From contig JAYQLI010000032.1 in the NCBI GenBank assembly GCA_038143065.1, positions 1 through 37,473 on the forward strand: a stretch of DNA of 37,473 nucleotides, written 5' to 3'. This DNA comes from Rhodospirillales bacterium (GTDB lineage: Bacteria > Pseudomonadota > Alphaproteobacteria > Bin95). The position numbers were made by a program, and so were the translations under genes. Under the pieces are notes generated by a model. That model was given only the letters and a program-made list of their open reading frames with translations. It was not told the origin of the DNA and did no database searches. Shown piece after piece: positions 12,104-35,322 of the stretch; position 1 is the first letter of the stretch, and each line of letters opens with the position of its first letter.

Positions 12104-12176
12104 AATGAATTCCTCCCAGATAACCTGCAACTCACATGCTAAGCGTTAGTTCGAAAATGCGCAGCATGTGTCAAAT

Positions 12177-12249: not shown

Positions 12250-12289
12250 GGTGATCGAATTTGCCTAACTCTCGCTGTCACGGGAGAAA

Positions 12290-13116: not shown

Positions 13117-13145
13117 ACATAAATGTGACTCAAGGGAGGAAAACC

Positions 13146-14140
13146 ATGATACGTCGCAATTTTACTAAACTCGTTGCCGGTCTAAGTTTGGCGGCCAGTA
13201 TGATGGGAACCACGGCACTCGCAGAAGACATGCGAATTGCTGTCGTTGTAAAAGCTCTAGGTATTGGCTTTTTCGAGGCTGCTGCAAAAGGTGCAGAGGA
13301 AGCAGCAGGTGAACTTGGTGGTGTAGAAATTATTTACACCGGACCAACGGACACTACTGCAGAGGGCCAGATTGAAGTCATCAACTCGCTAATCGCTCAA
13401 GGCGTAGATGCGATCGCTATTTCAGCCAACGATCCAGATGCGTTGGTTCCATCTCTTAAAAAGGCGATGAGCCGCGGTATTACAGTGGTTTCTTGGGACT
13501 CAGGCGTTGCTCAAGAAGGTCGTCAAATGCATTTGAATCCTTCTTCAACTCCCTTGATCGGAAATACAATCATCAAAGCTTGCTGCAGATCACATGCCAA
13601 ACGGCGGTGATGTTGCAATTCTATCGGCAACAGCTACCGCAACCAATCAGAATGCTTGGATCGAAGCTGCTAAAGAAGTGTTGCCAAATTATGATGGTGT
13701 AAATCTCGTTGCCACTGTCTATGGAGATGACTTGTCAGACAAATCCTACCGCGAAGCGCAAGGCCTAATGGCAACATACCCTGACTTGAAGGCGATAATC
13801 GCACCTACCACAGTAGGCATCCTTGCTTCGTGTCAGGCTGTCACAGATGCGGGTAAGATTGGCGAAATCAACGTTACCGGCTTGGGTCTACCGTCAGAAA
13901 TGGCTGGTTGTGTGGCGTCAGGTGCAACAAAGCTTCGCTATATGGAACCCAATCGACTTAGGCTATGCAGCTACTATGCTTGCCTACAATATCCATAATG
14001 GTGCTTCTACCGAAGCAGGTGCCTCAGTTCCTATGGGGCGTATGGGTTCAGCGACATTGGATAGCACTGGTTCAGCAGCAATGTCTGATCCATTTACTTA
14101 TGATAGCTCGAATGTCGACGACTTTAAGTCGATCTTCTAA
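13146..14140 (+). CDS. rhaS: Rhamnose ABC transporter solute-binding protein (CUT2), frameshifted
   Basis: Signal peptide, VVKALGIGFFEAA, EGQIEVINSLIAQ, ISANDPDAL, YGDDLSDKSY, VTGLGLPSEM, IWNPIDLGY. GGGAGGA RBS. Confidence 0.9.
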
Positions 14141-14156
14141 TTACCTCCTGATGATC

Positions 14157-14174
14157 CCAGCGTGTAAGCGCTGG
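14157..14174 (+). promoter_or_regulatory. Intercistronic hairpin after rhaS
   Basis: CCAGCGT-GTAA-GCGCTGG stem with a GNRA tetraloop. Confidence 0.5.
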
Positions 14175-14204
14175 TCACCTTTCTCAGCATTTTTGGGCTA
14201 GTTG

Positions 14205-15753: not shown

Positions 15754-16727
15754 AACATTTATTAGCATCCCGAGAAGCACTATTAATGGGGGCAAATCAT
15801 TGTATTGTTGGGGTTAGTCGCTACGCGTTTCCCAAGTTTCATAACCCCAGTAAACCTTGCGAGTGTATTTAATGACACATCACCATTAATTCTTCTCGCG
15901 ATTGGTCAGATGATCGTAATATTAACGAAATGCATTGATTTAAGCGTAGCGGCAAACCTAGCTTTGACTGGTATGGTTGTGGCTATGATCAACGTAGTTG
16001 CTCCGGATGTTCCAGTTGTGGTGATTATGATTGTTGCTATTGGCCTCGGTACCTTGATGGGTGCCTTCAATGGCATACTGGTTTGGAAACTTGATATCCC
16101 GCCAATTGTTGTAACACTTGGAACGATGACCATTTTTCGTGGGATAATATTCCTAATTTCGGATGGTAAGTGGGTTAATAGCCATGAAATGACTGATGCC
16201 TTCAAAGCATTTCCGCGTGCCGAATTTTTTGGTGTGCCTACAATGAGTTGGACAGCTATCTTTGTCTTGATCGTTTTTACCATTGTTATGACACGCACTA
16301 CCGTGGGTCGTTCATTTTACGCAGTTGGCGGAAACCCATGCAGCGACCTACACCCGGTATAAATGTTGGAAAGTCGCAATTTTTTGCGTCACACCATCGG
16401 GTGCGTTGGCTGGTCTTACGGGTTATCTATGGGTTCAAGGTATGCTGTGGTGTATGTTTGATATCGCATGGAGGATTTGAACTCGACGTTGTGCCGTGTG
16501 TAATTGGTGGTGTTTCGATTGCTGGTGGCATTGGTTCAGTTGGGGGGCTGTTCTTGGCGCGTTATTTTTCGAGTAATCAAGAACGCATTACCTGTGATTA
16601 GATTAATGTCTCACCGTTTTGGCAACTTGCTATTTCTGGGACAGCAATAATTATCGCAGTCGCTTTCAATGCTCGTGCCAACCGTGATAGAGGCAGGATC
16701 ATTTGAAGTCATGATGAGGCCCAATGA
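15747..16727 (+). CDS. rhaP: Rhamnose ABC permease, multiply frameshifted; end approximate
   Basis: Start MLKHLLASREALL, then CIDLSVAANLALTGM, IPPIVVTLGTMTIFRG, GRSFYAVGGNP, GFELDV, VIGGVSIAGGIG. Confidence 0.85.
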
Positions 16728-17709
16728 GCACGAATGAACGATTTCTTCCTGACCGTTTACATTCGGCAATGCAGCGCCGATTAAAAAGTTGGGAAACATT
16801 ACTTTTAGCTGTAAGCCGTCGCAATTTTCATCTTTAATAGTTTTGCATCTCCATATTTCCTTAATGCTTGGAATCTGAGTGATGCAACTTTTAATTTTAC
16901 TGAAAAAGCTATGATTGCATTTGCTATGGCTTTGCTAATTATAGCCGGTGAGATTGACCTTTGTCGCATCTATAATCGCCCTGCTCATCGCTGCTATGGG
17001 TGCTGCCGTTCAAGCTGGGGCCGGCACACCGGTATTGATAATTGTGGGTATTAGTACGGGTTTAATTTGTGGAGCGTTCAACGGTGTTTTGGTAACACGT
17101 TGGGGATTGCCATCGATTGTCGTCACAATCGGTACAATGAGCCTGTTTCGTGGTATCAGCTACATTGTGTTAGGTGATCAAGCTTATCGAGGATATCCAT
17201 CTGAATTTTCATTCTTTGGACAAGGCTACGTCTGGTGGGTGATATCATTCGAGTTCGTCCTTTTGCGATTATTGCATTAGTCTACGCGGTAATACTACAT
17301 CAGACAAATTTTGGTCGCGCAGTGTATGCTATTGGCAATAATCCAACAGGTGCGTTGTTTTCCGGTATTCGAGTACAGCGAGTGAAATTCATATTATTCC
17401 TAATGACTGGCTCTGATGTCAGGTATTGCCGCTATCTGTCTTACATCCCGCCTAGGGTCAACACGTCCATCAATTGCGTTTGGTTGGGAGCTTGAAGTTG
17501 TTACAATGGTCGTTCTTGGCGGAGTTAATATTCTTGGCGGATCCGGCTCGATTCCGGGCGTAATAATTGCCGCATTTGTAATGGGACTTGTAACATTTGG
17601 ATTGGGCCTCTTGAATGTTCCAGGTATCGTGATGTCAATCGTTATCGGTATGCTTTTGATCGGTGTGATTGCGCTCCCGCGGGTCTGGCACAATTGGAGA
17701 TCAAGCTAA
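16724..17709 (+). CDS. rhaQ: Second rhamnose ABC permease, multiply frameshifted
   Basis: LPSIVVTIGTMSLFRG, FGRAVYAIGNNP, RLGSTRPSIAFGWELEVVTMVVLGG across ORFs 16948, 17235 and 17416. Confidence 0.85.
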
Positions 17710-18019
17710 TGCAAAATATGCTTTTAAAATGCGGCTAAATTCCGGTTGTGAAAAGAGTACATGAAACGTCACGATGAGATTTGGCCTGAACTTGTTGGTC
17801 TGTTGAAGGACGCTGGAATTTCTGATTATTCCATTCATCTAGACCGCGAAACAAATATCCTTTTTGGCGTCCTTTGGCGGACAGATGAACACACTATGCA
17901 AAACCTACCTGCATGAAGTCATGAAGAAGTGGTGGGCATATATGGCCGATATTATGGAAAACCCACCTGATAATGAACCTGTTGCAAAAGAGCTTTCTAC
18001 CTGTCTTCACATGCCATGA
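17709..18019 (+). CDS. rhaM: L-rhamnose mutarotase (RhaM/RhaU), frameshifted and absent from the ORF track
   Basis: Manual translation gives [50 protein letters not shown] and VFHMP*. It overlaps both neighbours (TAATG, ATGA). Confidence 0.88.
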
Positions 18020-19396
18020 AACCAAATCATATCGCAGTTATCGATATAGGGCAAAACAAACGCTAAAATTGCTTTAGTGGATTTGAACGACTTGTCTGAA
18101 ATTGCGGTCGCAACTCGTCTAATAAGGTGTTGGCTGGTCCCCCTTGGCCGCATTTCGATGTTGATGCTCACTGGGAATTTTTACTGGACGCTTTGACTAA
18201 TTTTCATGCTCAGCATCGCGTGGATGCGATCTCAGTTACCGCGACACATGGCGCATGTGTTGCGCTACTAGACATTAGCGGAACCTCGCAGCACCAATAT
18301 TGGATTATGAACACTCCTGCCTGAAAATATTGCTATAGAGTATGATGAAATTAGACCATCATTTTCGAGACTGGATCGCCACGGCTTCCTTTGGTCTGAA
18401 TGTGGGTGCACAACTATATTGGACGCTTGGACAAGATATTGGGTTTGCTGGATCGCACAATTGTATTGTCACGTATCCTCAGTATTGGGGGTACCGATTA
18501 ACTGGTGTTGCTGCGACCGATATAACGTCGTTAGGTTGCCACACAGACCTTTGGGACCCTTATCAAAACCAGTTTTCATCACTCGTCAAAAGCTTGGCCA
18601 TCCAAAATAAGATCGCTCCAACATGTCTTCCTAGCACCGTACTGGGGAAGAATTTTACCTGCTATCGCTAAGCGTACGGGTCTTTCTGTAGACACCTTGG
18701 TCTATAGTGGAATACACGACTCTAACGCTTCGTTGCTGCCTCACTTGAAAAATTATGAACCTCCCTTCAGTGTCGTTTCCACTGGGACCTGGGTAATCGC
18801 TATGTCAATTGGAGGAAAGCAACCTGAGCTCGACCCTGCTGATGATACGCTCATCAATGTGAATGCTTTCGGTGATCCCGTGATGTCGGCGCGTTTCATG
18901 GGAGGCAGAGAATATGAAATGGTCATCGCGATTTCGCCGGTCGAGCCATCTGACTCAGAAATAGAAGAGGTCTTGCGAGATGATTAATGCTGTTACCAGC
19001 GGTAGTCCCGGATGCGGGTCCGTTTATGGGAATGCAATCGATTTGGAAATCTCCAGAGCCAAATCTTGGAAGCGGTCAGCGAGAAGCCGCAGTTGGGTTT
19101 TACTTGTCGTTAGTGACCGCTCCGGTGCTTAGAATTGATTGGTCATGAAGGACCCATTATTATTGAAGGACCTTTTTGCTCGTAACCGCTGTTTCCTGAT
19201 GATGTTGTCTGTTTATGCTGGCTGTGAGTGAGCAATGGACAGCGCGACGAATACGAGCGCCGGCGCGGCGCTTCTGGCGTCCTTCGATGTAAAAGCAAAG
19301 TGGAGTTTAAATGAGCCGATTAACATTGTTCCGACACAATTATTCGATCTTCTGGACCGATATGCAAAACAATGGCGTTCTTTTGTAATCTCATAG
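18016..19396 (+). CDS. rhaK: FGGY-family sugar kinase of the rhamnose locus (rhamnulokinase/RhaK), heavily frameshifted
   Basis: [72 protein letters not shown]. Confidence 0.85.
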
Positions 19397-19480: not shown

Positions 19481-21679
19481 TCAAAAGTGCTGGTTAAGCT
19501 CTACTTCGCCGCTATCTTTGCCGATGCCAATGTCGAATATAGTTTCATCTTGAACCCAGTCGCGGGTTACAGAGCTCCAGTATTTGAGTTCATCCGGGCC
19601 GAGTTGAAAACTGATAGTTCTGGTTTCACCCGGGGTGAGTGTAATTCTGCGGAAACCCTTCAATTCCCGAACGGGACGGGCCGACGTACCGAAGCGTTGG
19701 TGGATATATAGCTGAACGACTTCGTCAGCAGAAATTGTACCGGTATTCGTGACATCAATCGATGCCGTCAGGGTTTCACCCGGCGCAATTAGATTGGATG
19801 ACAGTCTAAGATTTTCATAGCTAAAGGCTGTATAGCTGAGGCCGTAGCCAAACGGGTAAACTGGTGTATTTGACTCATTCCAATAGCGCATGTAGGTTTC
19901 TTCAGGTTTGAATGACCTCAGATGCGCATAAGGCAGTGGAATCTGTCTATGTTCCGTGGCCAACTGAAAGGCAACTTACCTCCCAGGAACCGCATCACCG
20001 AAAATTAGGTTGGCGGCAGCTTCACCGCCGCGTGTACCGGGATGCAAATCATAAGCTGTGCATCAGGCTTAGCACCTTTCAGATCTAAAGGACGACCTGA
20101 CATAATTATAAGCACCGTTGGTGTGCCCCGTGGCAATACACCTTCAAGTAATTCTGTTGGCGGCCAGGCAGATCGAGCGTAGATCCAGGCATGCTCACCG
20201 ATCATGATTTGCGATTCTCCAAGAACTAAAACGGTAACCTCGGCTTCTTCAGCCAATTTAATTGCGCGAGCGATCTCCTTATCGTCGTCCACAGTGATCT
20301 CAGGCAAAGGCGGCAGAAACGGGTTGTCGAAGATCGACTGGTGTAAGCGCTCAGGCATCGACACTCCAATAGAGTGGTCAACGCGCGTTTCTTACCTGCC
20401 GCCGCACGGATGCCTGACAACACGAAAGTGACTGTTTCGCTTTCATCTTGTGCAAAAATCCAGGGACCCAATGTCGCGACTGGTCGGCGAGTGGGCCTAT
20501 CACCCGCGATTGAAGTAGTTTTTGCGAAAGTGGTAGCAGCTTGTTTTTGTTTTCCAAAAGTACGGCGCAACGCTCAGCAGCCTCCCTCGCTACATCGCGA
20601 TGCTCAGTTTAATAACGATAATGTTGATTTTGCTTCTTCGGCGTTTATGTAGGGGGCCTCGAAAAGACCCATGCGAGCTTTGACGGTCAACACACGACGC
20701 ACAGCCGTATCCAACTGCTCCATTGTGATACGTCCTGCTTCGAGCGCTGCGGGCAGGGTCTTAAATGCCGAGGGTCACCACCAAAGGGGCGTTGCCATTT
20801 TCATATCGATCCCAGCTTTCAGCGCGCGCGTGCCGCATCAGCGATATCCTTTGCAAAATGATGGGTGGTCAAGTCAGATGCAGCGCCAGCGTCAGTCACG
20901 ACAGATCCATTAAAGCCCATGGTGTTGCGTGGTACGTCTGTCATCAGCCAGTGATTGCCTGAAGCAGGCACGCCATTGAGACCCATATACGCGGACATAA
21001 TGTTTCCGGCACCTTCAGAAATTGCAGCCGGAAAGGGAGGTAAATAGATGTTTCAAAGTTCACTTTCGGACAGATCACTTCGTCATAATCGCGTCCGCCA
21101 AGCGAACCGCCATAGCCTGCGAAGTGTTTGGCCCTGCAATCCACGGTTCGGTGAGCCTATATAGGGACCCTGAAAACCACGAACTTGGGCAGCTGCCATC
21201 ACAGAGCCAAGAAAGGGGTCTTCCTGCACCTTCAATCATTCGGCCCCATCGCGGATCGCGCGTAATGTCAACCATTGGAGCAAACGCCCAGTGCAAACCT
21301 ATAGCACGCGCCTCGGTGGCGGCTGTTGTAGCAATCCTCGACAACTTGCGGGTCCCAGCTTGCCGGCCATAGCCAATGGAACGGGAAATACTGTCCTGAA
21401 CCCGTGGATCGCATCAGATCAAACAGCACTGGAATGCCAAGACGCGTTTCTTCAACAGCAATGCGCTGCAAGCAGTTGGTCTCTTCCGGCGTCGAGACGA
21501 AGAGCAACGAACCAGCGCGCCCAGCTCGAAGCTCAGCTTCGACTTTTTCTAGTTGTTCGGAAGCGCCCGAAAAGACGAAATACTGAGTTAGTTGGCCCGC
21601 TTTTTCTTCAACGGTCATCTCTGAGAGTAGCGCGTCCACCTTTTTTTAATTTTGTTGTTGTGCTGGGGAGATTGCTCAT
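19481..21679 (-). CDS. GH3 beta-glucosidase (BglX-like, with C-terminal Fn3-like domain), heavily frameshifted
   Basis: MTVEEKAGQL, ETRLGIP, FAPMVDITRDPRWGR, KHFAGYG, nucleophile region GFNGSVVTDA, YPFGYGLSYT, EVVQLYI, RPVRELKGF. No signal peptide seen. Confidence 0.9.
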
Positions 21680-21804
21680 ATTCAAATCTATTTCATTAGT
21701 TTCTGACGTATTGCGCTGTTGCTTGTTAAAGAGAGCAAAACAATTTATTGAATAGGTAATTCAGCTTAGGTCATTATTGACGTAATAACTGGTAGGGCGG
21801 AGAG

Positions 21805-22501
21805 ATGAAAGCATTGGTAACTTGGGGTGGCTGGGATGGACATGAGCCAGATCTTGTCGCAAAGCAGTTCTCAGAAATGTTAATATCTAATGGTTTTGAC
21901 GTAGATATTTTTGATACCCTAGATTGTTTCGATGACCCGGATGAATTGGACAAGTACGATCTTATTGTCCCCGTTTGGACAATGAGTGAGTTGACAAAAG
22001 AGAAGAGCCAAGAATGTGTCTTATGCGGTATCTCGTGGTACCGGTCTTGCAGGTTGTCACGGTGGTATGTGTGATGCATTTCGTTCAAATGTGCTGTGGC
22101 AGTTTATGACAGGGGCAAATTGGGTGTCGCACCCAGGTGGCGATGGCGTAACATACACTGTAACTATTGTTGATGCTTCACACGAATTAGTATCAGGCAT
22201 TCCGAATTTTGAAGTTACCAGTGAGCAATATTACTTGCATACAGACCCTTCAAATCATGTCTTAGCTACAACACGGTTTCCAACTGTAGATTGGTATCAT
22301 ACCCCGAATGGTGTGGTAAAAATGCCTGTCGCTTGGACAAGATTTTGGGGCTTGGGTCGTGTGTATTACAATGCCCTTGGGCACAAGCAAAACGTCATTG
22401 CGTCGGGCTATGCTTATGAAATGCTTGATAGAGGCTTATTATGGGCTGGCAAAGGGAAAGCATTAGCAAAACCGAACCTTCATAAACTGAAAGAATGGTG
22501 A
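21805..22501 (+). CDS. ThuA-domain (trehalose-utilisation-like) protein, frameshift near 22015
   Basis: WGGWDGHEP, GTGLAGCHGG, SEQYY and WGLGRVYYNALGH across ORFs 21805..22074 and 22016..22501. Confidence 0.85.
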
Positions 22502-23874: not shown

Positions 23875-24693
23875 TTAGCTCTGAAGTTCTATGTAGGCAA
23901 ATCTATACCCTTTGGGATCCCAGCAGGGAACGTTGATTGATCCTTGGCCGCCAAAAATCTTTTTTATCACAGTAATCTCATGGTTACGAAGATTAAGAAG
24001 CTTTAGTTCGACGTGCTTTTGTCGAGGATGGCCTTTGGTTCCAGAAGCATAGGACATATACAGCACAGCATCATCGCTTGGCGACGGATGGGGGAACCAA
24101 TCCACTGTTGGGCCAGAAGTCATTTGGGATAATTTGGTTCCGTCAGGATGCATGCGCCAGAGGTTCATCTCTCCTCCACGTTCCCCATTAAACCAGATCC
24201 AGCGGCCATCGGCGCTAAAGTCTGGACCATCTGTGTGTTCAAAACCGTTGGTGAGTATATTCTCTTTTCGAGTTTTAAGGTCGCATGTGCAGATACAAAA
24301 ATTATTTTCTCTATGTGCTGTGTAGGTAATTGTTTGGCCGTCAGGTGAAACTCCGTGCCACCAAGATGGATTATTTTTAGTGATTTGGATGCATTTGTTT
24401 GCATTAATATTTTTTTGAAAAATTACTGAATTTCCATTTACATCATTGTTACTTAGGAAAAGTGTCGTCCCGTCTGGAGATATTCCGTGATCATTATTAA
24501 GAGTAGTTAGTTCGCCTGTATTGTGAAGCAGCAAAACTGGGTTATTTAAGTCTATTTCAAACAAAAGGCCGTCACTATTAACAAAAATTGTGTCGTTACT
24601 GTGCCAGTTTGGAGCCTCAATTAAACGATCCGTAGTGAGTAATGCTTCAAAACATGACAGACGAGTATCAAAAATTACAAGTTTATATTTCAT
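23875..24693 (-). CDS. TolB-like / PD40-repeat beta-propeller protein of unknown function
   Basis: IEAPNW, NNDHGISPDG, WHGVSPDG, DGPDFSADGRWIWFN, WFPHPSP, GGQGSINVPCW. Probable start is ATG 24693. Confidence 0.8.
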   Translation of the reverse strand: MKYKLVIFDTRLSCFEALLTTDRLIEAPNWHSNDTIFVNSDGLLFEIDLNNPVLLLHNTGELTTLNNDHGISPDGTTLFLSNNDVNGNSVIFQKNINANKCIQITKNNPSWWHGVSPDGQTITYTAHRENNFCICTCDLKTRKENILTNGFEHTDGPDFSADGRWIWFNGERGGEMNLWRMHPDGTKLSQMTSGPTVDWFPHPSPSDDAVLYMSYASGTKGHPRQKHVELKLLNLRNHEITVIKKIFGGQGSINVPCWDPKGYRFAYIELQS

Positions 24694-24697
24694 GACA

Positions 24698-25610
24698 TTA
24701 CCTTTTATCTGGGGATCCATAGAGCGCCGCAAATATGCCTGCTGCAATAATCAACATGATGCCGATACTGCTCAAAGTTGTCGGTACTTGATTAAAAATT
24801 ATCCAACCTAAACCTGATGCCCATACTATGTGCAAATAGTTTACCGGTGCTAGTTGAGAAGCTGGGGCGTACCTATACGCAGATGTAAACAAAAAATGTC
24901 CCGTCATCGCGCACATGCCGAGGATTAAGAATAAAAAGGTATCAAAAATCGTTAAGTTGCTACTCGGGAAATTTGATCCAATCGAAAGCGCTCCAAAAAA
25001 TATGGAACCAATCCAAAGCGTATGGAAAAGCATTGCCAAGGTTGTCTCCGACGATGTTAAGAGCCGAGTTAATATGTGATATGCTACAGCGAAAATTACA
25101 TTTATGAGAACCAAAGCGACACCGAATGAATTCAAGCCACTACTGGGTCTAACGATAACAATAACGCCGATGAACCCGCACATAGCACTAAACCACCCAG
25201 TAGCACTGACACGTTCGTTTAAAAATGTCTTTGCAGCGATCATGACTAAGAATGGTGCCAGGTAGACAATTGATATAGTCTCGGCTAAGGGCATCAATTT
25301 TAATGCAAATCCTAAAGTTAAAGAAGCAAACGCAAGACAAAGTGCTCGAACGACCACAAGCCATGTGTTCGTTGTACTCCACAGATGTCTACCATTGGAA
25401 GGGTAACTCAAAGCGCTTAAAATTATCAGACCGATTGCATATCTCGCAAAAACAACAATGCTCACTGGATAGTTTATTGTGAGATGTTTAGTAATCGCGT
25501 CTGATAGTGCAAACGCTAGAACTGCTAATGCGACATAAATAAACGCACGGATTGGGCGATATATTAAATTGCTCGAGGTTAAATCATGTGTTTGAGTAAT
25601 CCCAGTTTCT
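24698..25610 (-). CDS. DMT/EamA-family transporter; start uncertain
   Basis: Multi-helix protein with FLNERVS, VIVRP and AYRYAPASQLAPVNY. The frame stays open upstream of 25465 (RPIRAFIYVALAVLAFALSDAITKHL) to about 25610. Confidence 0.82.
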
Positions 25611-25651: not shown

Positions 25652-26701
25652 TTAATAAGTGTTTGACGAAGATACATGGATCCTTGATGTGCTTGCTCGA
25701 ACAATTAATTCGACATCGACTATTTCTGCGGAGTATGGATTTTTCAGTTCTTTGTTCTGTTCAAGAATTTCTGAAAGTTTTTCGGCAGCTCTCAGCCCAA
25801 TAAACTTTCTATTTTGTCTGATCGTAGTGAGTGCTGGAACAAAGTTATCCGCAAGTGAAATATCGTCAAAGCCGACGACGGATATATCCTTTGGGACATT
25901 CAAGCCTGAAGATGTAAGCGCAGATATCAATCCAAAAGCAACTTCATCAGATGCACAAAATACAGCTGTGGGACGATCTTTCATGTCCAAAATTCGGTGT
26001 CCTGCTTCCACTCCCGAAGCAACCGAAAAGTCTCCCCTGATTATCCATTCTGGATTGAAGGGTAAACCAAGTCTTTCTCTTTCGTGATTCAGGCTATCGC
26101 GTCTGATCAAAGTGAGAACATTGTTTTCTGGTCCGGTAACATGTGCGATTTTTCGGTGACCCAACTCGTACAAGTGACGAAACGCAAGTTTTGCGCCTTT
26201 CTCGTTATCACTGCGGATTGAAGGGTAATTTTCATTGTCGACCCACTCACAAGCAAAGACAATTTTATCGTCCACATTGAAAGCGCTGAATTTATCAAGT
26301 TGATTTGATTTGAAGTTTCCATCAAGGCAAATCATTCCATCTATCGTGCCGTCTGAAAAAGACTCGATGACGCGCATTTCTTTTTCATCGAGATGCTGAC
26401 TATCAGTTATTAGCACTGAGTACTTGGTTCTTGAAAAACCTTTACTTATGCCAGACAAAATTTCAGAAAAAAACGGATTACCTAAGTTTGGTACGCAAAC
26501 TAATATTGCGTTGGCCTTTTGTCTTCGTAAACTTTGTGCCGTCTTGTTAATTCTATAGCCTGTTGAATTTATCGCGTCTGAAACCGCTTTTAGGGTCGCT
26601 TCGGACAGTTTTTGAGGATCGTTAAGCGCTCGGCTGACGGTGGCTGTTGAAACGCCAGCAACGCGTGCAACATCTTGAATTTTTGCTGTTTTATGTTTCA
26701 T
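25652..26701 (-). CDS. LacI-family transcriptional regulator
   Basis: KIQDVARVAGVSTATVSRAL, NPFFSEIL, VPKDISVVGFDD, ELIVRAST. Probable start is ATG 26701. Confidence 0.95.
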   Translation of the reverse strand: MKHKTAKIQDVARVAGVSTATVSRALNDPQKLSEATLKAVSDAINSTGYRINKTAQSLRRQKANAILVCVPNLGNPFFSEILSGISKGFSRTKYSVLITDSQHLDEKEMRVIESFSDGTIDGMICLDGNFKSNQLDKFSAFNVDDKIVFACEWVDNENYPSIRSDNEKGAKLAFRHLYELGHRKIAHVTGPENNVLTLIRRDSLNHERERLGLPFNPEWIIRGDFSVASGVEAGHRILDMKDRPTAVFCASDEVAFGLISALTSSGLNVPKDISVVGFDDISLADNFVPALTTIRQNRKFIGLRAAEKLSEILEQNKELKNPYSAEIVDVELIVRASTSRIHVSSSNTY

Positions 26702-26789
26702 TTTGCCAGTTGTTTTGAACGTTGCCTCAGTTTCATGGTTGGCAGAATTTATTTGGCTTGACAACATTATTAATAAAATAAGAAGCTAT

Positions 26790-26845
26790 ATGTAATCGAT
26801 TACAACGCTCACAGAGGGTCTGACGTGTATTGTAATCGATTACAT
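26790..26845. promoter_or_regulatory. Two LacI-family operators
   Basis: The perfect palindrome TGTAATCGATTACA occurs at 26791-26804 and 26831-26844, with central CG, between the divergent LacI and SBP genes. Confidence 0.85.
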
Positions 26846-26902
26846 TGTGCTGAATTGAAGCATGTCAAATTTGTGGTTTGTAGGGCCACATGGGAGGAAA
26901 AA

Positions 26903-28132
26903 ATGAAAATTATTCGTACTATTTTAGCAGCGACAACTGCGCTGACAGTAACGTCTGCAGCTCAAGCTACAGAGCTCGAGGTGATGCACTGGTGGACTTC
27001 AGGTGGTGAAGCCGCCGCAGTAGGTCAGTTCGCAAAAGCGTTTAACGCGACAGGTAATAACTGGGTCGATGCTGCAATCGTTGGGGGTGAGCAGGCGCGT
27101 GCGGTTATGGTTAGTCGCATCATGGGGGGAGACCCAATGGGTGCTTTCCAATTTAACCATGGTAGACAAGCTGAAGAGTTGATCGAAGCGGGTGTTCTTC
27201 GTGATATTACTGACATTGCGGAGGCCGAAGGTTGGAAAGACATCGTCAACCCGTCAAATCTGCTGGATGCTTGTACCGTTGACGGAAGAATTTATTGTGC
27301 GCCAGTGAATATTCACTCTTGGCAGTGGTTGTGGGTAAGTCATAAAGCGTTCGAAGATGCTGGTTTAGATGTTCCAACCAATTGGGATGAATTTGTTGCA
27401 GGTGCGCCTGCGCTTGAGAAAGCTGGTACGCTTCCAATGGCGATGGGGCAACAGGGATGGCAGCAGACCGGTGCTTTCAACGTTTTGATGGCAAGTTTAC
27501 TTCCAAGCGACGTATACATGTCAGTTTACGGTGATAAAAATACCGACGTTGCGGGCGGTGCTGATGTTGCGAAGGTTTTCCAAGCTGCAGCTGACGCGCG
27601 TGCTATGGCATCAAACTCGACTGTTCAAAACTGGAACGAAGCTACAAATCTTGTGATAACTGGAAAAGCTGGTGGTCAGATCATGGGTGATTGGGCTCAA
27701 GGTGAGTTTTCGGTCGCAGAAGCCAAAGCGGGTGAAGATTATAGTTGTCTTCCGGGACTTGGAGTGAACCCACGTCTTTCAACTGGCGGAGATGCATTTT
27801 ACTTCCCAGTGCTAAAAGACGATGCAAAGATTGCTGCACAGACTGAATTAGCAACATTGATGCTGAAACCCGAGACACAAGTTGCATTCAACTTGAGTAA
27901 GGGATCACTGCCAGTTCGTGGTGATATCGACATGTATGCGGCAAACGATTGCATGAGAAAAGGCCTAGATCTTTTGGCAAAAGGTGGACTTCTTCCAGAT
28001 ACAAATATGTTGCTGACACCTGATACCTCAACTCAGTTGAATGATTTGTTTGGTCAATTCTTCACTGATCCGAGTATTTCTGCTGCTGAAGCACAGAAAA
28101 CATTTGTAGACATCATCGCTGACGCCGATTGA
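26903..28132 (+). CDS. CUT1 ABC solute-binding protein, glucose/beta-glucoside (cellobiose-type) clade
   Basis: GGGAGG RBS, signal peptide, LEVMHWWTSGGEAAAV, CAPVNIHSWQWLW, QIMGDWAQGEF. From memory it resembles the Sinorhizobium meliloti SMc04259-type SBP; this needs BLAST confirmation. Confidence 0.88.
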   Translation: MKIIRTILAATTALTVTSAAQATELEVMHWWTSGGEAAAVGQFAKAFNATGNNWVDAAIVGGEQARAVMVSRIMGGDPMGAFQFNHGRQAEELIEAGVLRDITDIAEAEGWKDIVNPSNLLDACTVDGRIYCAPVNIHSWQWLWVSHKAFEDAGLDVPTNWDEFVAGAPALEKAGTLPMAMGQQGWQQTGAFNVLMASLLPSDVYMSVYGDKNTDVAGGADVAKVFQAAADARAMASNSTVQNWNEATNLVITGKAGGQIMGDWAQGEFSVAEAKAGEDYSCLPGLGVNPRLSTGGDAFYFPVLKDDAKIAAQTELATLMLKPETQVAFNLSKGSLPVRGDIDMYAANDCMRKGLDLLAKGGLLPDTNMLLTPDTSTQLNDLFGQFFTDPSISAAEAQKTFVDIIADAD

Positions 28133-28148
28133 TTTCATAATGAACGCA

Positions 28149-28177
28149 AAGCCAACTCAATTTATTTGGGTTGGCTT
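28149..28177 (+). terminator. Stem-loop after the SBP gene (stabiliser or leaky terminator)
   Basis: AAGCCAACTCAA-TTTAT-TTGGGTTGGCTT followed by ATTTT. Confidence 0.65.
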
Positions 28178-28201
28178 ATTTTAGACACGAAGAATGAAAT
28201 T

Positions 28202-29094
28202 ATGGATCAGAAGCGACCTAACCAACTTTTCAGAAATAAGACGGCAAAGATTGCGGCCATACCCATGATTTTGACCGCATTATTTGTATTCGTTGGGGGA
28301 ACAATTTGGACGATAACCTATAGTTTTACGAAATCCGGGTTGCTTCCCAAATTAAAGTGGGTGGGCTTCAAGCAGTATGACAGGCTTTGGGGAACTAAAA
28401 AATGGTTAGTGGCGATCGAAAACTTAGCAATTTATGGTATTTTAATGCTGTTATTGGTGTTTATTATTGGCTTTATACTCGCTGCGTTGATTGATCAAAA
28501 AGTTAGATTTGAAAATACGTTTAGAACAATAATCCTGTATCCATATGCGATGAGCTTTGTCGTTACAGGGCTTATATGGCAGTGGATGTTGAACCCTGAA
28601 TTTGGTGTGCAAAGTATTGTTAGAGATTTGGGTTGGGAGAGCTTTTCATTTGATCCACTCTACAATTCTGACATCGCAATATATGGAGTTCTCATAGCGG
28701 GCCTTTGGCAAGGAAGCGGCCTCGTTATGGTCCTAATGTTGGCTGGTCTCAGGGGCATTGATCAAGAAATTTGGAAAGCTGCAAAAATCGACGGCATTCC
28801 TACTTGGAAAACATATTTGATGGTCGTGATCCCGATGATGAGACCTGTGTTTATCACTACCTTAGTCCTTGTAACAGCAGGCATTGTTAAGGTTTATGAT
28901 TTGATAGTTGCACAAACAAGCGGTGGTCCAGGAATTTCGACCGAAGTGCCCGCGAAATATGTTTATGATGCCATGTTTAGCGGTCAAAACTTGGGGCAAG
29001 GATTTGCTGCATCGACAATGATGCTTTTAACCGTCGCTATTGTCGTCATACCCTGGGCGATATTGAATTTGGGGGTAACAAGAAGCATGGCTAA
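28202..29094 (+). CDS. CUT1 ABC permease 1 (MalF-like)
   Basis: LAGLRGIDQEIWKAAKIDG and TSGGPG. The natural end ...[10 protein letters not shown] (TAA 29092-29094) is reached by a 1-nt correction near 29060. Confidence 0.88.
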
Positions 29095-29987
29095 TTCAAG
29101 TGTGATGAATGTCGAGCCAAGTGGGCCGAAACCCAAGAAAACACTCTCTAGAAATAACATTTTTCTATACGGAACCTTATTCGTAATCGCAGTGTATTAC
29201 GCAGTACCTTTATATGTTATGATCGTTACGTCACTGAAGGGTATGCCTGAAATCCGTATGGGGAACTTATTTGCCCCACCGGTGGAAGTCACCTTTGAAC
29301 CATGGGTTAAAGCTTGGAGTGAGCAGTGTACCGGCTTAAAATGTGATGGATTAAGCACGGGTTTTTGGAATTCCGTAAGAATTACAATCCCATCTGTATT
29401 AGTTTCAATAGCAATTGCTTCAGTTAATGGCTATGCGCTTGCTAATTGGCGGTTCAAAGGGGCCAACTTTTTCTTCACTATTTTAATTTTCGGTGCGTTC
29501 ATTCCATACCAAGTCATGATTTACCCCATCGTGATCATGTTGAGAGAAATGGGGATATACGGCACACTCACTGGACTTGTAATTGTTCACAGTATTTTTG
29601 GTATGCCGATCATTACACTTTGTTTAGAAACTATTTTAGCTCCTTGCCAGAAGAACTGTTTAAAGCCGCACGTGTTGATGGTGCTGGTTTTTGGGGATCT
29701 TCTTCAGAGTCTTACTTCCGATGTCCGTACCGATTTTTACTGTTGCAGTGATCTTGCAGGTAACTGGTATATGGAACGACTTTTTGTTTGGCGTCGTATT
29801 CACGGGTCCAGAAGCCTACCCGATGACCGTGCAGTTAAATAGTATTGTGAACTCAGTCCAAGGTGTGAAGGAATACAACGTAAATATGGCGGCAACTATT
29901 CTTACAGCACTGGTTCCTCTGAGCATCTACTTTGTGTCTGGAAAATTGTTTGTGCGAGGTATCGCAGCCGGCGCGGTGAAAGGTTAA
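29087..29987 (+). CDS. CUT1 ABC permease 2 (MalG-like), frameshifts near 29620 and 29690
   Basis: MANSS start, [29 protein letters not shown] and [12 protein letters not shown] end. Confidence 0.88.
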
Positions 29988-29991
29988 ATCC

Positions 29992-31065
29992 ATGAATTCT
30001 GTTGAGATAAAAAAACTTGATCTTCATTTTGGTTCCGTTGAGGTCCTAAACGATCTTAATTTGGAAATTGAAAAAGGGGAGTTCTTAGTTCTTCTCGGAT
30101 CATCAGGTTGCGGCAAGTCAACTTTGCTAAACTGCATAGCAGGGCTTCTTGAAATAACGAATGGACAAATCTTTATTGAAGGCAAAAATGTAACCTGGTC
30201 AGAGCCGTCAGAACGCGGGATTGGAATGGTATTTCAATCTTACGCATTGTATCCGCAAATGACTGTGGAAGGAAATTTGTCATTTGGTCTAAAGAATGCA
30301 AAACTTCCAAAAGATGAAATTCAAGAAGCGTGTTGCTCGTGCTGCAGAAATTCTACAGATTGAGCCCCTTTTAAAGCGTAAGCCGTCGGCCCTTTCCGGT
30401 GGACAAAGGCAAAGGGTGGCTATTGGCCGTGCATTAGTACGTGACGTAGACGTATTTCTTTTCGATGAACCTCTTTCAAATTTGGATGCGAAACTCCGAG
30501 CTGACTTGCGCGTTGAAATCAAACAGCTTCATCAAAAACTTCATAATACGATGATCTACGTAACACATGATCAAATTGAGGCGATGACGCTAGCTGTTCG
30601 TATTGCCATCATGAAAGGTGGTAAAATTTTGCAGCTGGCATCTCCAGACGAGATTTATAATAAGCCAAAAGTCAAATATGTTGCAGAGTTTATCGGATCA
30701 CCAACAATGAATTTTATGAATGGCAGCATTAGTTCAAATCAATTCACCTCGGACCTATTCGATTGCGCGCTGGATGACTATGAACCAGACCAGCTGAATT
30801 TCTCTGGTGAAGCAATTTTGGGGTGCGCGCTGAGCATATCTTATCTGGAGAGTCTGCTTCACTGGCTCAAGTTCAATTGAAGGGGAGTGTTGAGCTGTTG
30901 GAGCCTTTAGGTTCCGATATTTTGGCACGGGTTAATGTTGATGGTTCTCTATTTTGGGTGCGATTAGATGGACAATCGAACGTAAGTTTGAACCAAGAGT
31001 TAGCGATAGGTTTTGGAACAGAAAACATACACCTTTTTGATGCTGTGTCTGAGCAGCGCATTTAG
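29992..31065 (+). CDS. CUT1 ABC ATP-binding subunit, frameshifts near 30325 and 30825
   Basis: [42 protein letters not shown] and a TOBE-like tail VELLEPLG. Confidence 0.92.
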
Positions 31066-31084
31066 CTAAACGATAGGAAAATCG

Positions 31085-31834
31085 ATGAATACATCATTCC
31101 AACTATATTCAGCTCGCGAATTCACGCCATGGGTTGATATTTACGAAATGCTTGCGAACCTTGGCTATAATCAAGTTGAAGGTTTCGGCGCAAACTATGT
31201 GGACGCGACAGAAACAAAGGAACAATTAGATAAAAATGGTTTAACTATGCCCACGGGCCATTTTTTTCCGATTGGGTCATTTGAAGAAGAACTGAATTCC
31301 ACGCTTAAGGCTGCTCGTGTGCTACAAATGGAACGTATTTTTTGTCCAGCACCTGAAGATTTATGGAGAAACGGAACTGATGCTGCGAATTGGAAGTCAC
31401 TTGCACAAAGACTAGAAGAGGCCTGTAAAAAGGTTAATGATGCGGGTTTTAGGTTTGGTTGGCATAACCACCACTGGGAATTCATGCCATTGCAAAGTGG
31501 AGAAATTCCAATGGAGATAATACTCGAAAACGCGCCTTCGATTGAATGGGAAATGGATGTTGCGTGGGTTGTGCGCGGAGATGCAGATCCAATCTCATGG
31601 ATAAATCGATTTGGGGATCGTATTACGACAGCACATGTAAAAGACATTGCCCCCACGGGTGAAAATGTCGATGAAGATGGCTGGGCAGATCCTGGTCATG
31701 GCACAATGGATTGGAAATCTTGTTACTCTGCGCTCACAAATGTTGGTGTAGACGTGTTTGTGATGGAACATGACAATCCATCTAACGTTTCACGGTTTGC
31801 ACAAAGAGCAATTAAAACTTTTAAATCACTTTAG
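31085..31834 (+). CDS. Sugar-phosphate isomerase/epimerase family TIM-barrel protein (AP endonuclease 2 fold)
   Basis: Intact 249 aa ORF. FQLYSAR, GWHNHHWEF and metal-ligand motifs EMDVAW, HVKD, MEHD. Confidence 0.9.
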   Translation: MNTSFQLYSAREFTPWVDIYEMLANLGYNQVEGFGANYVDATETKEQLDKNGLTMPTGHFFPIGSFEEELNSTLKAARVLQMERIFCPAPEDLWRNGTDAANWKSLAQRLEEACKKVNDAGFRFGWHNHHWEFMPLQSGEIPMEIILENAPSIEWEMDVAWVVRGDADPISWINRFGDRITTAHVKDIAPTGENVDEDGWADPGHGTMDWKSCYSALTNVGVDVFVMEHDNPSNVSRFAQRAIKTFKSL

Positions 31835-31842
31835 AGGCCAAA

Positions 31843-32975
31843 ATGTCAAAAAACTTGGAATAGGCATCCTGGGTTGTGGAAATATTTCAGCTGCATACAT
31901 GAAGCTCGCCCCATTATTTAATGGGATTGAAATTATTGGTTGCGCGGATTTAGACGCTAGCGCGGCCGAATTACGAGGGCAGGAGTTCGATATCAAGGCG
32001 ATGAGCATCGATGAGCTTCTTAGCGCGCCAGATATTGACATTATCGTTAACCTAACTGTTCCCGCAGCACACTTTGAGGTTTCAAGCAGCATCTTAAAGG
32101 CGGGAAAACATGTGTATTCAGAAAAGCCTTTTGTATTAAGTTTGGAAGAAGGCTTAAAGCTGCAAGAGGAAGCAAATAAACGAAATCTACGCGTAGGGTC
32201 TGCACCTGATACCTTTTTGGGTGGTTCACATCAGCTGGCACGAAAATTGATTGATGAAAATGAGATAGGAAAAGTTACTTCGGGTACATGCTTTGTGCAA
32301 AGCCCAGGTATGGAAATGTGGCATCCCAATCCAGACTTTTTCTTTAAGCCAGGTGGTGGTCCGATATTAGATCTGGGTCCTTACTATATATCCAACTTGG
32401 TGCAATTGCTTGGACCAGTCGAAAGAGTGTGTGCCATGAGTTCTTCGGCGTCTGAATATCGGACGATTACTTCGCAACCCCGAAGCGGGGAAAAGATAAA
32501 AGTTGAGACCCCGACAACAGTCCACTCAATTTTACTATTTAAATCAGGCGCTCAAATTAACTATTGTGCAAGTTGGGATGTCTGGGAACATTCTCACTCA
32601 AATATGGAACTTTACGGGCAAACCGGAACTATACATATTCCAGATCCCAATTTCTTCGGTGGCGAGGTAAGGGTTACTGATAAATCTGCTTTTGTAAATG
32701 CTGGAGGCTGGGACCATCCATTCGGTATTGCCAATAGTACTGACGGTAGAGGGATGCCAATGGCCAATTATAGATGTGCTGGGTTGGCGGATATGGCCCA
32801 AGCGATTGTTAATGGTCGAAATCATCGTTGTTCACTTGAGTTTTCACTGCATGTTGTGGACGTAATGACTTCTATTTTGCGATCTGGGGAAGAGTGCCGT
32901 TTCATTGATCTTTCGTCAACATGCGAGCGCCCAGAGTTTTTAGATGTAAATGACGCTCGAGAATTAATGGCGTAA
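31843..32975 (+). CDS. Gfo/Idh/MocA-family NAD(P) oxidoreductase
   Basis: GILGCGNIS, NLTVPAAH, HVYSEKP, SAPDTFLG, GGGPILDLGPYY. Likely start is ATG 31843 with one A missing from the following A-run. Confidence 0.92.
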
Positions 32976-32991
32976 AAAGGGAGGGCGCGTA

Positions 32992-34047
32992 ATGGCAATA
33001 CAAATCAAAGGTCCAGGCATTTTTCTGGCGCAATTCGCTGGTGATTTGGCTCCGTTTAATTCACTCGAGAACATTACGGCATGGGCAGCAGACTTGGGAT
33101 ATAAAGGGGTGCAAATCCCAACCTTTGATACCGGGCTGTTTGATCTAGAAAAGGCTGCGACGAGTGACACGTATTGCGATGAAGTTCTTGGTATCTGTGC
33201 TGATGCAGGTGTCGAAATCACAGAACTATCGACCCATTTACAAGGACAATTGGTTGCAGTTAATCCTGCATATAATGAAGCATTTGATGCTTTTGCACCA
33301 CCGGCAGTGCACAGAAATCCTTCCGCCAGAACTGAGTGGGCTGTTGATCAATTAAAAAAGGCTGCGTTGGCTTCGCACAAATTAGGGCTTGAGCACACCG
33401 TGAGCTTCACAGGTTCCTTAGCCTTTCCGTTCCTGTATCCTTGGCCACAACGTCCTGCAGGGTTGGTTGAAGAGGCTTTTGCCGAGCTCGGACGTCGGTG
33501 GACCCCAATTTTGGATCACTATAAGGAATACGGTCAAGATATCGGTTTTGAAATCCATCCAGGTGAAGATGTGTTTGATGGCGCAACATTTGAAATGTTT
33601 GTTGATGCTTGTGGCGGTCATGAAGCCGCTATGATTAACTACGATCCGTCGCATTTCTTGCTGCAGCAAATGGATTATCTGGCATTTATCGACATCTATC
33701 ATGACCGTATTAATGCGTTCCACGTCAAAGACGCCGAATTTAATCCAGACGGGCGTCAGGGAGTGTATTCTGGCTATCAATCGTGGATCAACCGCGCGGG
33801 GCGGTTCCGCAGTTTGGGCGATGGTCAGGTCGATTTTGCGGGTATCTTTTCCAAATTGATCCAGCATGGGTACGACAGCTGGGCCGTAATGGAATGGGAA
33901 TGCTGTATCAAATCACCTGAACAGGGCGCTGCCGAAGGTGCGCCGTTCATTGCAAGCCACATGATCGATGTAACCGAAGTAGCTTTTGATGATTTTGCGG
34001 GCGGCGAACGGGATGATGCACAAATCAAAAGGATGCTGGGCCTATGA
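32992..34047 (+). CDS. Sugar-phosphate isomerase/epimerase family TIM-barrel protein (long, IolH/hydratase-like type)
   Basis: Intact 351 aa ORF. KGPGIFLAQFAGD, FEIHPGED, YDPSH, FHVKD, FRSLGDGQVDF, MEWEC. Confidence 0.9.
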   Translation: MAIQIKGPGIFLAQFAGDLAPFNSLENITAWAADLGYKGVQIPTFDTGLFDLEKAATSDTYCDEVLGICADAGVEITELSTHLQGQLVAVNPAYNEAFDAFAPPAVHRNPSARTEWAVDQLKKAALASHKLGLEHTVSFTGSLAFPFLYPWPQRPAGLVEEAFAELGRRWTPILDHYKEYGQDIGFEIHPGEDVFDGATFEMFVDACGGHEAAMINYDPSHFLLQQMDYLAFIDIYHDRINAFHVKDAEFNPDGRQGVYSGYQSWINRAGRFRSLGDGQVDFAGIFSKLIQHGYDSWAVMEWECCIKSPEQGAAEGAPFIASHMIDVTEVAFDDFAGGERDDAQIKRMLGL

Positions 34048-35153
34048 CGCGTCTGAAACTTGGGATGGTCGGCGGTGGCCAAGGCGCGTTTATCGGTGCC
34101 GTGCATCGAATTGCATCTAGGATTGATGGCAGGTTTGAATTAGAAGCAGGTGCGTTATCGTCGGATCCTGCCCGTGCCGCTCAGTCTGCGGCGGAATTGG
34201 GTATAGAACGATCTTATGATAATTTTGAAGCTATGGCTGTGGTGAGGTCTGCTCGCGCAGATGGCATTGACGCTGTGGCGATTGTAACCCCAAACCATAT
34301 GCACGCAGGACCAGCTATCGCGTTTTTGAATGCGGGTATTCATGTGATTTGTGACAAGCCTTTGGCCGCTACTATTGAGGATGTCAAAGCAATAGAGAAC
34401 GCAGTTAGCAAGTCGACAGCACGATTTTTCTTGACTCACAATTACACGGGTTACCCGCTTATTCGTCAAGCGCGCGAAATAGTTGCTAATGGAGAATTGG
34501 GAAATGTGCGTATCATCCAGGCTGAATATGCGCAAGATTGGTTGACAGAGGCGGTAGGTTCGTCGAACAAACAAGCGGATTGGCGGACTGACCCTGCGCG
34601 TGCAGGAGCAGGGTGTATTGGTGATATAGGTACCCACGCATTTAACATAGCGACATTTGTGACTGGCATGGTGCCGAATGAATTGTCGGCTGAGCTTTCG
34701 AGTTTTGTTTCGGGACGTCAGGTTGATGACAATGCGTTTATTCGCCTGCGATATCAAAATGGAGCACGCGGTACAATTTGGTCATCACAAGTTGCGGTAG
34801 GCTGTGAAAATGGCTTGAAATTGAGGGTCTATGGTGACAAGGGCGGATTGGAATGGAACCAAGAAAACCCAAACCAAATGACATTTGCGCGATTTGGTGA
34901 ACCCAAGCAAATAATTACACGTGGTGGTGCTGGTTTAGGATCTGGTGCTGGACGTTGGACGCGTATTCCTCCTGGTCATCCAGAAGGCTATCTAGAAGGT
35001 TTTGCGAATCTTTACAACGATATCGCTGATATTATTTCCGGAAAAAATGACAACGGATTGGTTCCTGATTTATCCGCCGGTGTAGACGGAATGTGGTTTA
35101 TTGCTTCATGTATTGATAGTTCAAATACAAATGGCAGTTGGATAAAGCGATAA
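34044..35153 (+). CDS. Gfo/Idh/MocA-family NAD(P) oxidoreductase
   Basis: GMVGGGQGAFIGAVH, IVTPNHMH, HVICDKP, GDIGTHA, PPGHPEGYLEGFANLY. ATGA overlap with the upstream gene. Confidence 0.93.
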   Translation: MTRLKLGMVGGGQGAFIGAVHRIASRIDGRFELEAGALSSDPARAAQSAAELGIERSYDNFEAMAVVRSARADGIDAVAIVTPNHMHAGPAIAFLNAGIHVICDKPLAATIEDVKAIENAVSKSTARFFLTHNYTGYPLIRQAREIVANGELGNVRIIQAEYAQDWLTEAVGSSNKQADWRTDPARAGAGCIGDIGTHAFNIATFVTGMVPNELSAELSSFVSGRQVDDNAFIRLRYQNGARGTIWSSQVAVGCENGLKLRVYGDKGGLEWNQENPNQMTFARFGEPKQIITRGGAGLGSGAGRWTRIPPGHPEGYLEGFANLYNDIADIISGKNDNGLVPDLSAGVDGMWFIASCIDSSNTNGSWIKR

Positions 35154-35322
35154 TATTAGGTTGTGTTAGAATAGCCCCCTTTAAACGTGCATAGACAGCC
35201 TACGGAAGTTTACCTTAATCTATGCCTCTTGTCGCCAACTGTTCAAACTGCATAGGGTCATGTTCAAAATGTAGTACTTTCAATTGATCCGATTTAAGCT
35301 GCTCTAATAATGTCTAAAAAAT

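Follow-up and report, generated by a model that had tools for sequence, protein, structure and literature searches.

A route that breaks glycosidic bonds by oxidation, elimination, hydration and reduction is already published for Agrobacterium tumefaciens, for levoglucosan and for gut Bacteroidales. The present analysis concerns an operon at positions 26903-35153 (+ strand) of a 37,473-nucleotide stretch of DNA, contig JAYQLI010000032.1 of the Rhodospirillales bacterium assembly GCA_038143065.1, the whole of which is referred to below as the window. The operon encodes an ATP-binding cassette (ABC) importer, two TIM-barrel proteins (TIM1 and TIM2) and two Gfo/Idh/MocA-family proteins (Gfo1 and Gfo2), and lies next to a divergent LacI-family gene. 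Judged from its sequence, it probably serves, under LacI repression, the breakdown of a small D-glucoside with a probable beta linkage, from which glucose would be freed without a glycoside hydrolase (GH). No new chemistry is present, and the pathway is less new than the initial annotation of the window had assumed.

In Bitter et al. (2023, PMC10628242), the A. tumefaciens route is made up of the FAD enzyme GlycDH, AtOGE, AtHYD and a Gfo reductase, and the levoglucosan route LgdA/B1/B2/C of Bacillus smithii is cited. For gut Bacteroidales (Bacteroides thetaiotaomicron BT (BT2156-2160), Alistipes AL and the fosmid P2B11), the preprint by Nasseri et al. (2024, 10.1101/2024.03.25.586180) places the BT and AL enzymes in the periplasm and describes NAD that is bound tightly and a lyase/hydratase of the DUF1080 family. 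The P2B11 cluster, which acts on glucuronides, consists there of two Gfo genes flanked by two 'sugar phosphate isomerase' genes. According to PMC9007349, GapMind does not cover the use of cellobiose, maltose and sucrose by the 3-ketoglycoside route, because knowledge was lacking.

The window operon shares with the A. tumefaciens operon the four predicted chemical steps, an AtHYD orthologue (TIM2), an AtOGE homologue with the metal and catalytic residues (TIM1) and a Gfo gene beside the hydratase gene. Unlike that operon, its putative oxidising enzyme is a cytoplasmic Gfo/Idh/MocA protein and not the FAD enzyme GlycDH, and no FAD/GMC oxidoreductase was found in the operon or among the scanned open reading frames (ORFs) of the window. 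A further difference is that the locus comes with a GtsA-like ABC importer of its own and with a LacI repressor, for which two palindromic operators are predicted. The make-up of two Gfo proteins plus two TIM barrels is that of P2B11, whose dehydrogenase (8tdi) was, however, a weak match of Gfo2 (E 3.1e-11). In contrast to the BT/AL enzymes, TIM1, Gfo1, TIM2 and Gfo2 were all without a signal peptide when read from the translations (the solute-binding protein has one), DUF1080 was absent, and the BT_2158-family Gfo model (NF058561, cut-off 750 bits) was missed by Gfo1 (26.6 bits) and Gfo2 (36.4 bits). The levoglucosan route has, by description, the same step order and likewise two Gfo-type and two TIM-type proteins, but no LgdA orthologue was present here, with the LgdA equivalog (NF052479, cut-off 650 bits) scoring 131 bits for Gfo2 and 49.1 bits for Gfo1. 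Among characterised proteins, DgpA of the C-glycoside system DgpA/DgpB-C (9m3d, 7xr9, 7drd) comes closest to the Gfo1 family; the similarity is nevertheless low, and the DgpB-C lyase ranked 46th among the fold matches of TIM1. Enzymes of the AtOGE type are reported in PMC10628242 to be unable to cleave C-glycosides.

Enzymes of the operon and the proposed route

TIM2 (351 aa, 32992..34047, + strand) matched PDB entry 8ro4, titled '2-hydroxy-3-keto-glucal hydratase AtHYD from A. tumefaciens', with E 4.8e-159 and 532 bits over residues 5-351 against 4-349. The two proteins were identical at about two thirds of the first aligned positions (67/102, counted by eye), the next PDB match (2zds) was found at E 1.1e-35, and the IolE structure 3cny was reached at just 7e-9. 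By sequence, TIM2 is an orthologue of AtHYD, and this supports the earlier proposal that hydration is carried out by a TIM barrel and not by a DUF1080 protein; no match to DUF1080 (PF06439) was obtained in the 97.6%-complete genome. AtHYD is reportedly the subject of a 2024 Angewandte paper.

TIM1 (249 aa, 31085..31834, + strand; Pfam AP_endonuc_2), a barrel of the xylose-isomerase-like kind, is a predicted Mn-dependent 3-keto-beta-glucoside 1,2-lyase (beta-eliminase). Its best solved relative was AtOGE, the A. tumefaciens O-glycoside beta-eliminase (PDB 8bvk, E 1.3e-27, about 25% identity), and 8tcs, 8tcd and 8tct were matched at E of about 1e-11. The metal ligands of AtOGE are given in Bitter et al. 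(2023, PMC10628242) as His132, Asp163, His189 and Glu233 and the catalytic base as His134. In the HMMER alignment, H132, H134, E161, D163, H189 and E233 of AtOGE corresponded to H127, H129, E156, D158, H184 and E228 of TIM1, all of which were invariant in 38 of 38 aligned orthologues. The AlphaFold (AF2) model of TIM1 had a predicted local distance difference test (pLDDT) value of 89.9, and its Foldseek ranks 1-4 were occupied by BT1 from B. thetaiotaomicron (8tct) and AL1 from Alistipes (8tcd/8tcr), structures titled '3-keto-beta-glucopyranoside-1,2-lyases', with AtOGE at ranks 6 and 8 (TMt 0.90, root-mean-square deviation 2.2). These lyases stood ahead of every epimerase and of IolE (E 1e-9 or weaker). 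No solved YcjR was among the sequence or fold matches of TIM1 in PDB and Foldseek, searches that did not include a direct comparison with YcjR/YcjS. TIM1 is thereby grouped by sequence, residues and fold with the solved 3-keto-beta-glucoside lyases AtOGE, BT1 and AL1, as the earlier suggestion of a TIM-barrel eliminase had anticipated, and lyase activity is predicted from this family membership. The two barrels were dissimilar, as had been stated (28% identity over 68 aa), and so were the two Gfo proteins (25% identity over 186 aa).

Gfo1 (31843..32975, + strand; Pfam GFO_IDH_MocA) is a predicted NAD-dependent glucoside 3-dehydrogenase. A profile of 37 Gfo1 sequences searched against PDB gave the C-glycoside 3-oxidoreductase DgpA1 (9m3d, E 1.4e-27) as the best match, followed by scyllo-inositol/L-glucose dehydrogenase, DgpA (6.9e-23) and LgdA (3.3e-18). 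Because the relationship to DgpA is distant, the role of C3 oxidase is assigned to Gfo1 as an inference from this relationship together with the genomic context. Gfo2 (34044..35153, + strand; same Pfam family) was close to uncharacterised structures (PDB 3v5n, E 2.5e-136), with LgdA (6a3f) farther away at E 2.9e-33. It is read as a predicted 3-ketoglucose reductase since its gene sits directly after that of the hydratase TIM2, and genomic context is also what suggests which Gfo protein would oxidise and which would reduce. Clustering with inositol enzymes, which would speak against the pathway, was not found, since the equivalog models for inositol and levoglucosan enzymes were missed by wide margins: the IolG model (TIGR04380, cut-off 355 bits) scored 53 and 79.7 bits and the IolE model (TIGR04379, cut-off 290 bits) scored 39.9 and 61.4 bits.

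In the proposed route, a CUT1 ABC importer would carry the intact sugar to the cytoplasm, where Gfo1 would oxidise the C3 hydroxyl of the glucosyl unit with NAD+. TIM1 would then, in a metal-dependent step, abstract the hydrogen at C2 and eliminate the aglycone, leaving 2-hydroxy-3-keto-glucal. Addition of water to this intermediate by TIM2, predicted from its orthology to AtHYD, would give 3-ketoglucose, which Gfo2 would reduce to glucose. The route would be redox-neutral because Gfo2 would consume the NADH made in the Gfo1 step. The sequence, residue and fold searches are in agreement with the oxidation-elimination-hydration-reduction chemistry that the initial annotation had put forward.

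Operon structure, proposed LacI control and frame breaks

The gene families and their order were as first described. A periplasmic solute-binding protein (SBP) of the CUT1 type (26903..28132, + strand; Pfam SBP_bac_1) is followed on the same strand by ABC permease 1 (28166..29086), ABC permease 2 (29087..29987) and an ABC ATPase of the MalK/UgpC type with a TOBE domain (29992..31065), and these by the genes for TIM1, Gfo1, TIM2 and Gfo2. Both permeases carried BPD_transp_1 and were delimited by tblastn with the intact orthologues of a related locus (L010), which together with family models also placed the ATPase. Tight coupling was confirmed from the coordinates, with intergenic gaps of 4-19 nt and an overlap of 4 nt between TIM2 and Gfo2. 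A scan of the region after Gfo2 found no terminator-like site.

The LacI-family repressor gene (25652..26767, - strand; Pfam LacI and Peripla_BP_3/1) is divergent from the operon. The spacer between it and the SBP gene is 135 nt long and holds two copies of a perfect 14-bp palindrome, TGTAATCGATTACA, at 26791..26804 and 26831..26844 (2 matches against 0.16 expected). The palindromes were spotted by reading the sequence, an inverted-repeat scan having missed them, and TGTAATCGATTACA was present in the same spacer of 18 of 99 loci. The two copies and this conservation give the proposed LacI control direct sequence support, and they make TGTAATCGATTACA a likely candidate for the LacI operator.

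The operon had been described as almost intact, which was not borne out: six disrupting single-base indels were found between 29064 and 31847. As written, permease 1 continues into permease 2 without a stop between them, permease 2 switches from frame 2 to frame 1 and then to frame 3, and the ATPase switches from frame 1 to frame 2 and back (all by tblastn with L010). The ATG of Gfo1 at 31843 is one A out of frame in an A-run, and the window text is in frame from 31848. Logan contigs from 3 DNA runs and 1 RNA run of four studies were aligned on 26800-35200, over which they were 2-3% different from the window, and they showed a single-base indel relative to it at every one of the six breaks. 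These were +1 at 29064, after which permease 1 ends at 309 aa; +1 at 29618 or 29620 and +1 at 29692, both in permease 2; -1 at 30323 and +1 at 30819, both in the ATPase; and +1 (A) in the A-run at 31847, seen in all four runs, which brings the ATG at 31843 in frame with Gfo1. Correction of the six indels gave eight uninterrupted genes, in which permease 1, permease 2 and ATPase aligned at full length to L010 (permease 2 over 1-301 of 301) and the ATPase formed one frame of 357 aa.

The breaks in the transporter genes and at the start of Gfo1 are very probably assembly errors, an explanation favoured by base runs, an rpoB frameshift, low open-frame coverage and duplicate contigs. Several indel sites fall within or next to base runs such as tttt|gggg (two cases) and aaaaaa. 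The essential gene rpoB of the same assembly (contig C35:2660058-2664196) is frameshifted near 2662010, with the adjoining rpoC intact, so even the main contig is not free of indel errors. The fraction covered by open frames of 200 aa or more was 0.585 for the window contig, compared with 0.75 for the main contig (2.86 Mb), and lay at 0.09-0.66 for most other small contigs above 30 kb (one reached 0.73). Two contigs of the assembly, C41:2252-13187 and C6:3000-13928, shared 99.1% identity across 10.9 kb. They differed by 71 mismatches and by 20 gap events, 13 of which stood beside the same base, and are either one region assembled twice or two strains. The other explanation, that the transporter genes are true pseudogenes in this strain and that the operon is decaying with its enzymes still intact, is rather unlikely. 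In favour of decay, five of the six indels are confined to the permease and ATPase genes (1.8 kb), and the enzyme frames of about 4 kb are left unbroken, the sixth shifting the Gfo1 start codon only. Because the Logan contigs come from relatives and not from the same strain, their divergence leaves room for strain-specific decay of the transporter, and this counts against assembly error. The base runs, the rpoB frameshift, the lower open-frame coverage and the indel differences between C41 and C6 all stand against decay.

In the Gfo2 gene, all four runs showed a +1 at 34239 and a -1 at 34246, seven positions apart and compensating each other. For this reason the window text probably misreads two or three residues of Gfo2 around 34239-34246.

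Related loci, the imported sugar and competing explanations

A scan with TIM1 fetched 80 related loci (48-72% identity), mostly from marine Rhodobacterales with some from Granulosicoccaceae and Hyphomicrobiales. Gfo1 was directly 3' of TIM1 in 78 of the 80 loci, the exceptions being one frameshifted locus and one cut by a contig end. The SBP-permease-ATPase importer was directly upstream in 70; six of the remaining ten were cut by a contig end, two had an insertion and two lacked the importer. A divergent LacI homologue (at least 40% identity) was present in 52 loci. TIM2 and Gfo2 were both present in 44 loci, as neighbours in 42 of these, and TIM2 came straight after Gfo1, as in the window, in 10 of the 44; the other loci of this group had one to three genes inserted between Gfo1 and TIM2. 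A search of the literature with Phaeobacter and 3-keto-glycoside terms found no paper on the TIM1 locus in roseobacters.

The hydratase and reductase genes were also found in other company. In the window's genome, contigs C41 and C6 (loci L097 and L098) encode another hydratase and reductase side by side (82% identity to TIM2 and 66% to Gfo2), accompanied by a CUT2 importer, a different Gfo, a TIM-barrel fragment and a ROK regulator. A Rhizobium genome has the hydratase-Gfo2 pair, around which the neighbouring ORFs picked in high-GC DNA gave no Pfam families. Phaeobacter plasmids of 70-95 kb carry a paralogous eight-gene set as two divergent units; on plasmid pGal_D78 of Phaeobacter gallaeciensis (L089, 54364-63930) the TIM1 and TIM2 homologues were about 40% and 81% identical, and the annotation was generic only. 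From this pattern it is inferred that TIM1, Gfo1 and the transporter form a substrate-specific front module, and TIM2 and Gfo2 a common back module that also accompanies other front modules. The modular pattern is the main reason for placing oxidation and elimination with TIM1 and Gfo1 and hydration and reduction with TIM2 and Gfo2.

Two further matches were recorded. The match on a plasmid of Rhizobium sp. CIAT894 was considered as a GlycDH operon and rejected, its context being different. The window's genome has at C11:30000-36100 (L099) a third TIM/Gfo cluster, beside a tripartite ATP-independent periplasmic (TRAP) transporter, with a Gfo1-like protein of 39% identity and a frameshifted Gfo2-like protein of 33-43% identity over two pieces.

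Genes inserted into the related operons included one for an aldo-keto reductase (26 of 80 loci) and one for a PD40 beta-propeller of about 275 aa, labelled 'TolB family', which in 21 of the 80 loci separates Gfo1 from the hydratase (for example L017:14537-15361). A propeller homologue with 47% identity is encoded in the window at 23875-24747 (- strand), two genes past LacI. The AF2 model of the propeller (pLDDT 95.5) matched the uncharacterised A. tumefaciens structure 2ojh (39% identity, template modelling score 0.97), and with respect to function the sequence-atlas and fold searches returned just 'TolB family' labels and 2ojh. The propeller may be a helper of the pathway.

The initial annotation had called the importer glucoside-type. 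Among solved structures, the SBP came closest to the glucose-binding proteins 5xpj and 5dvf (E about 1e-66), and not to known glucoside binders, followed by 8hqq, 4r2b and 2b3b (the last at 1e-28). These matches are Pseudomonas GtsA-type and Thermus glucose binders, and oligosaccharide binders were reached at 1e-12 or weaker. A glucoside-type importer is an assumption for this reason, and the ligand of the SBP may be small. Compared with the Pseudomonas glucose importer GtsABCD (ppGBP, 5dvf/5dvi; name from PMC7232493), the window importer has a homologous SBP, which is joined, in a CUT1 layout common to both systems, by two permeases and an ATPase of the MalK type, but it differs in that it adjoins a lyase and a dehydrogenase gene in most of the related loci. 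The N-terminus of the SBP (MKIIRT...AQA) resembled a signal peptide by eye.

Several of these findings count against a simple beta-glucoside route. The solved relatives of the SBP bind free glucose, which fits a monosaccharide-sized ligand better than a glucoside. Gfo1 is a distant relative of any characterised glycoside 3-dehydrogenase and misses both the BT_2158 and the LgdA models by the scores given above. A GH43 gene of the beta-xylosidase/arabinofuranosidase type with a GH43_C2 domain lies between Gfo1 and TIM2 in 41 of the 80 loci (L017:12942-14540, L062:11879-13531 and 39 others). In many relatives, then, the route runs beside a hydrolase, and the sugar is perhaps no simple glucoside. 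A search of the window's genome with a GH43 query from a related locus found no homologue.

A more far-reaching reading is tentative and not very likely. It takes the marine locus as a distinct, fully cytoplasmic and NAD-cycling 3-keto route for an abundant marine sugar. Small beta-glucosides and pentosyl-glucosides are candidates, and uptake would rely on a binder that evolved from a glucose binder. The locus consists of LacI, the GtsA-like importer, the lyase and Gfo1, often GH43, the aldo-keto reductase and the propeller, and then the hydratase and the reductase. On this reading, Gfo1 and its relatives would represent a glycoside 3-dehydrogenase clade not described before, and the propeller would act as a so far unrecognised helper enzyme.

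The same chemistry could act on a glycoside that is intramolecular or of the size of a monosaccharide, for example levoglucosan (1,6-anhydroglucose), with the operon as a functional analogue of LgdA/B1/B2/C. The glucose-binding relatives of the SBP, the Lgd route's own pair of Gfo and pair of TIM proteins (PMC10628242) and the match of Gfo2 to LgdA 6a3f agree with such a substrate. It is nevertheless an unlikely one, given that both Gfo proteins missed the LgdA equivalog, that O-glucoside lyases are the solved structures to which TIM1 comes nearest and that the GH43 genes of the related loci point to an oligosaccharide or glycoside.

Less likely still is the salvage of already oxidised sugars, in which 3-keto-glucosides, the glucal or 3-ketoglucose formed extracellularly by periplasmic 3-dehydrogenases would be imported. 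In that case Gfo1 would have another role, for example as a second reductase or as an oxidase for another position. The A. tumefaciens precedent, where a separate FAD enzyme, GlycDH, oxidises the sugar (PMC10628242), is compatible with salvage, and the role given to Gfo1 here rests on context. Against it, Gfo1 is fixed right after the lyase in nearly all related loci (78/80), its best characterised relative is the C3-oxidoreductase DgpA, and no GMC-type dehydrogenase was among the scanned ORFs of the window.

It is highly improbable that the operon serves sugar epimerisation or isomerisation of the Escherichia coli YcjQRS kind or an inositol-type route, without cleavage of a glycosidic bond and with a TIM-barrel epimerase or dehydratase acting between the oxidising and reducing steps of the Gfo enzymes. 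In its favour, Pfam placed both barrels in the broad AP_endonuc_2 family only and the sole NCBIfam match was a weak one to IolE, but the IolE and IolG equivalogs were missed, TIM2 is by sequence an AtHYD orthologue, and TIM1 keeps the lyase residues and has lyases as its top fold matches ahead of all epimerases.

Occurrence and contig neighbourhood

The locus is kept in at least 80 species genomes, chiefly of marine Rhodobacterales and Granulosicoccaceae. Near-identical DNA was found in marine, seawater and estuary metagenomes, where about half of the sampled 31-mers of 28900-31100 occurred (20 runs, of which 6 were RNA libraries, from 9 studies). An RNA-library contig of 4817 bases spans SBP to Gfo1; it was not counted as evidence of expression because the contig shows no single transcript and DNA is possible in such libraries. 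With at least 80 species genomes and the metagenomes of 9 studies, the beta-glucoside route favoured here may make non-hydrolytic glucoside cleavage common in marine heterotrophs and invisible to GH-based carbohydrate surveys. The analysis also provides predicted specific roles for eight genes that carry public labels such as 'sugar phosphate isomerase/epimerase' or 'Gfo/Idh/MocA oxidoreductase', for example on pGal_D78.

TIM1 was not found at E <= 1e-20 in 40 relatives of the window's genome (9 from its genus, 15 from its family and 16 from its class), and no DNA synteny of the window was found with the 9 same-genus genomes. An IS6/IS240-family DDE transposase gene lies at 7836-8519 of the window, and about 20 diverged copies (64-90% identity) were found on other small contigs, among them C10, C48, C38, C11 and C42. 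Such copies may be the reason why the assembly is fragmented. On account of the missing TIM1, the missing synteny and the transposase copies on small contigs, the contig is accessory DNA, whether a plasmid or accessory replicon, an island or a mis-binned contig.

The statement that no GH and no kinase is encoded held inside 26903-35153 and failed for the contig, which has GH3, GH78 and FGGY kinase sequences upstream. The GH3 glycosidase gene (about 19481-21413, - strand) is broken into at least five frame fragments with Fn3-like, GH3_C and GH3 N-terminal pieces, and next to it lies a ThuA-like gene (21796-22501, + strand) split by one frameshift. The FGGY kinase fragment is at 18535-18987. The part of the window from 166 to 19000 is a rhamnoside/rhamnose utilisation region, with a broken GH78 alpha-L-rhamnosidase gene (4214-6437), an L-rhamnose isomerase gene (8744-9985), a fused aldolase/short-chain dehydrogenase gene (10007-11557) and a frameshifted CUT2 ABC importer (13125-17709), and it also holds a CUT1 ABC importer and DeoR.

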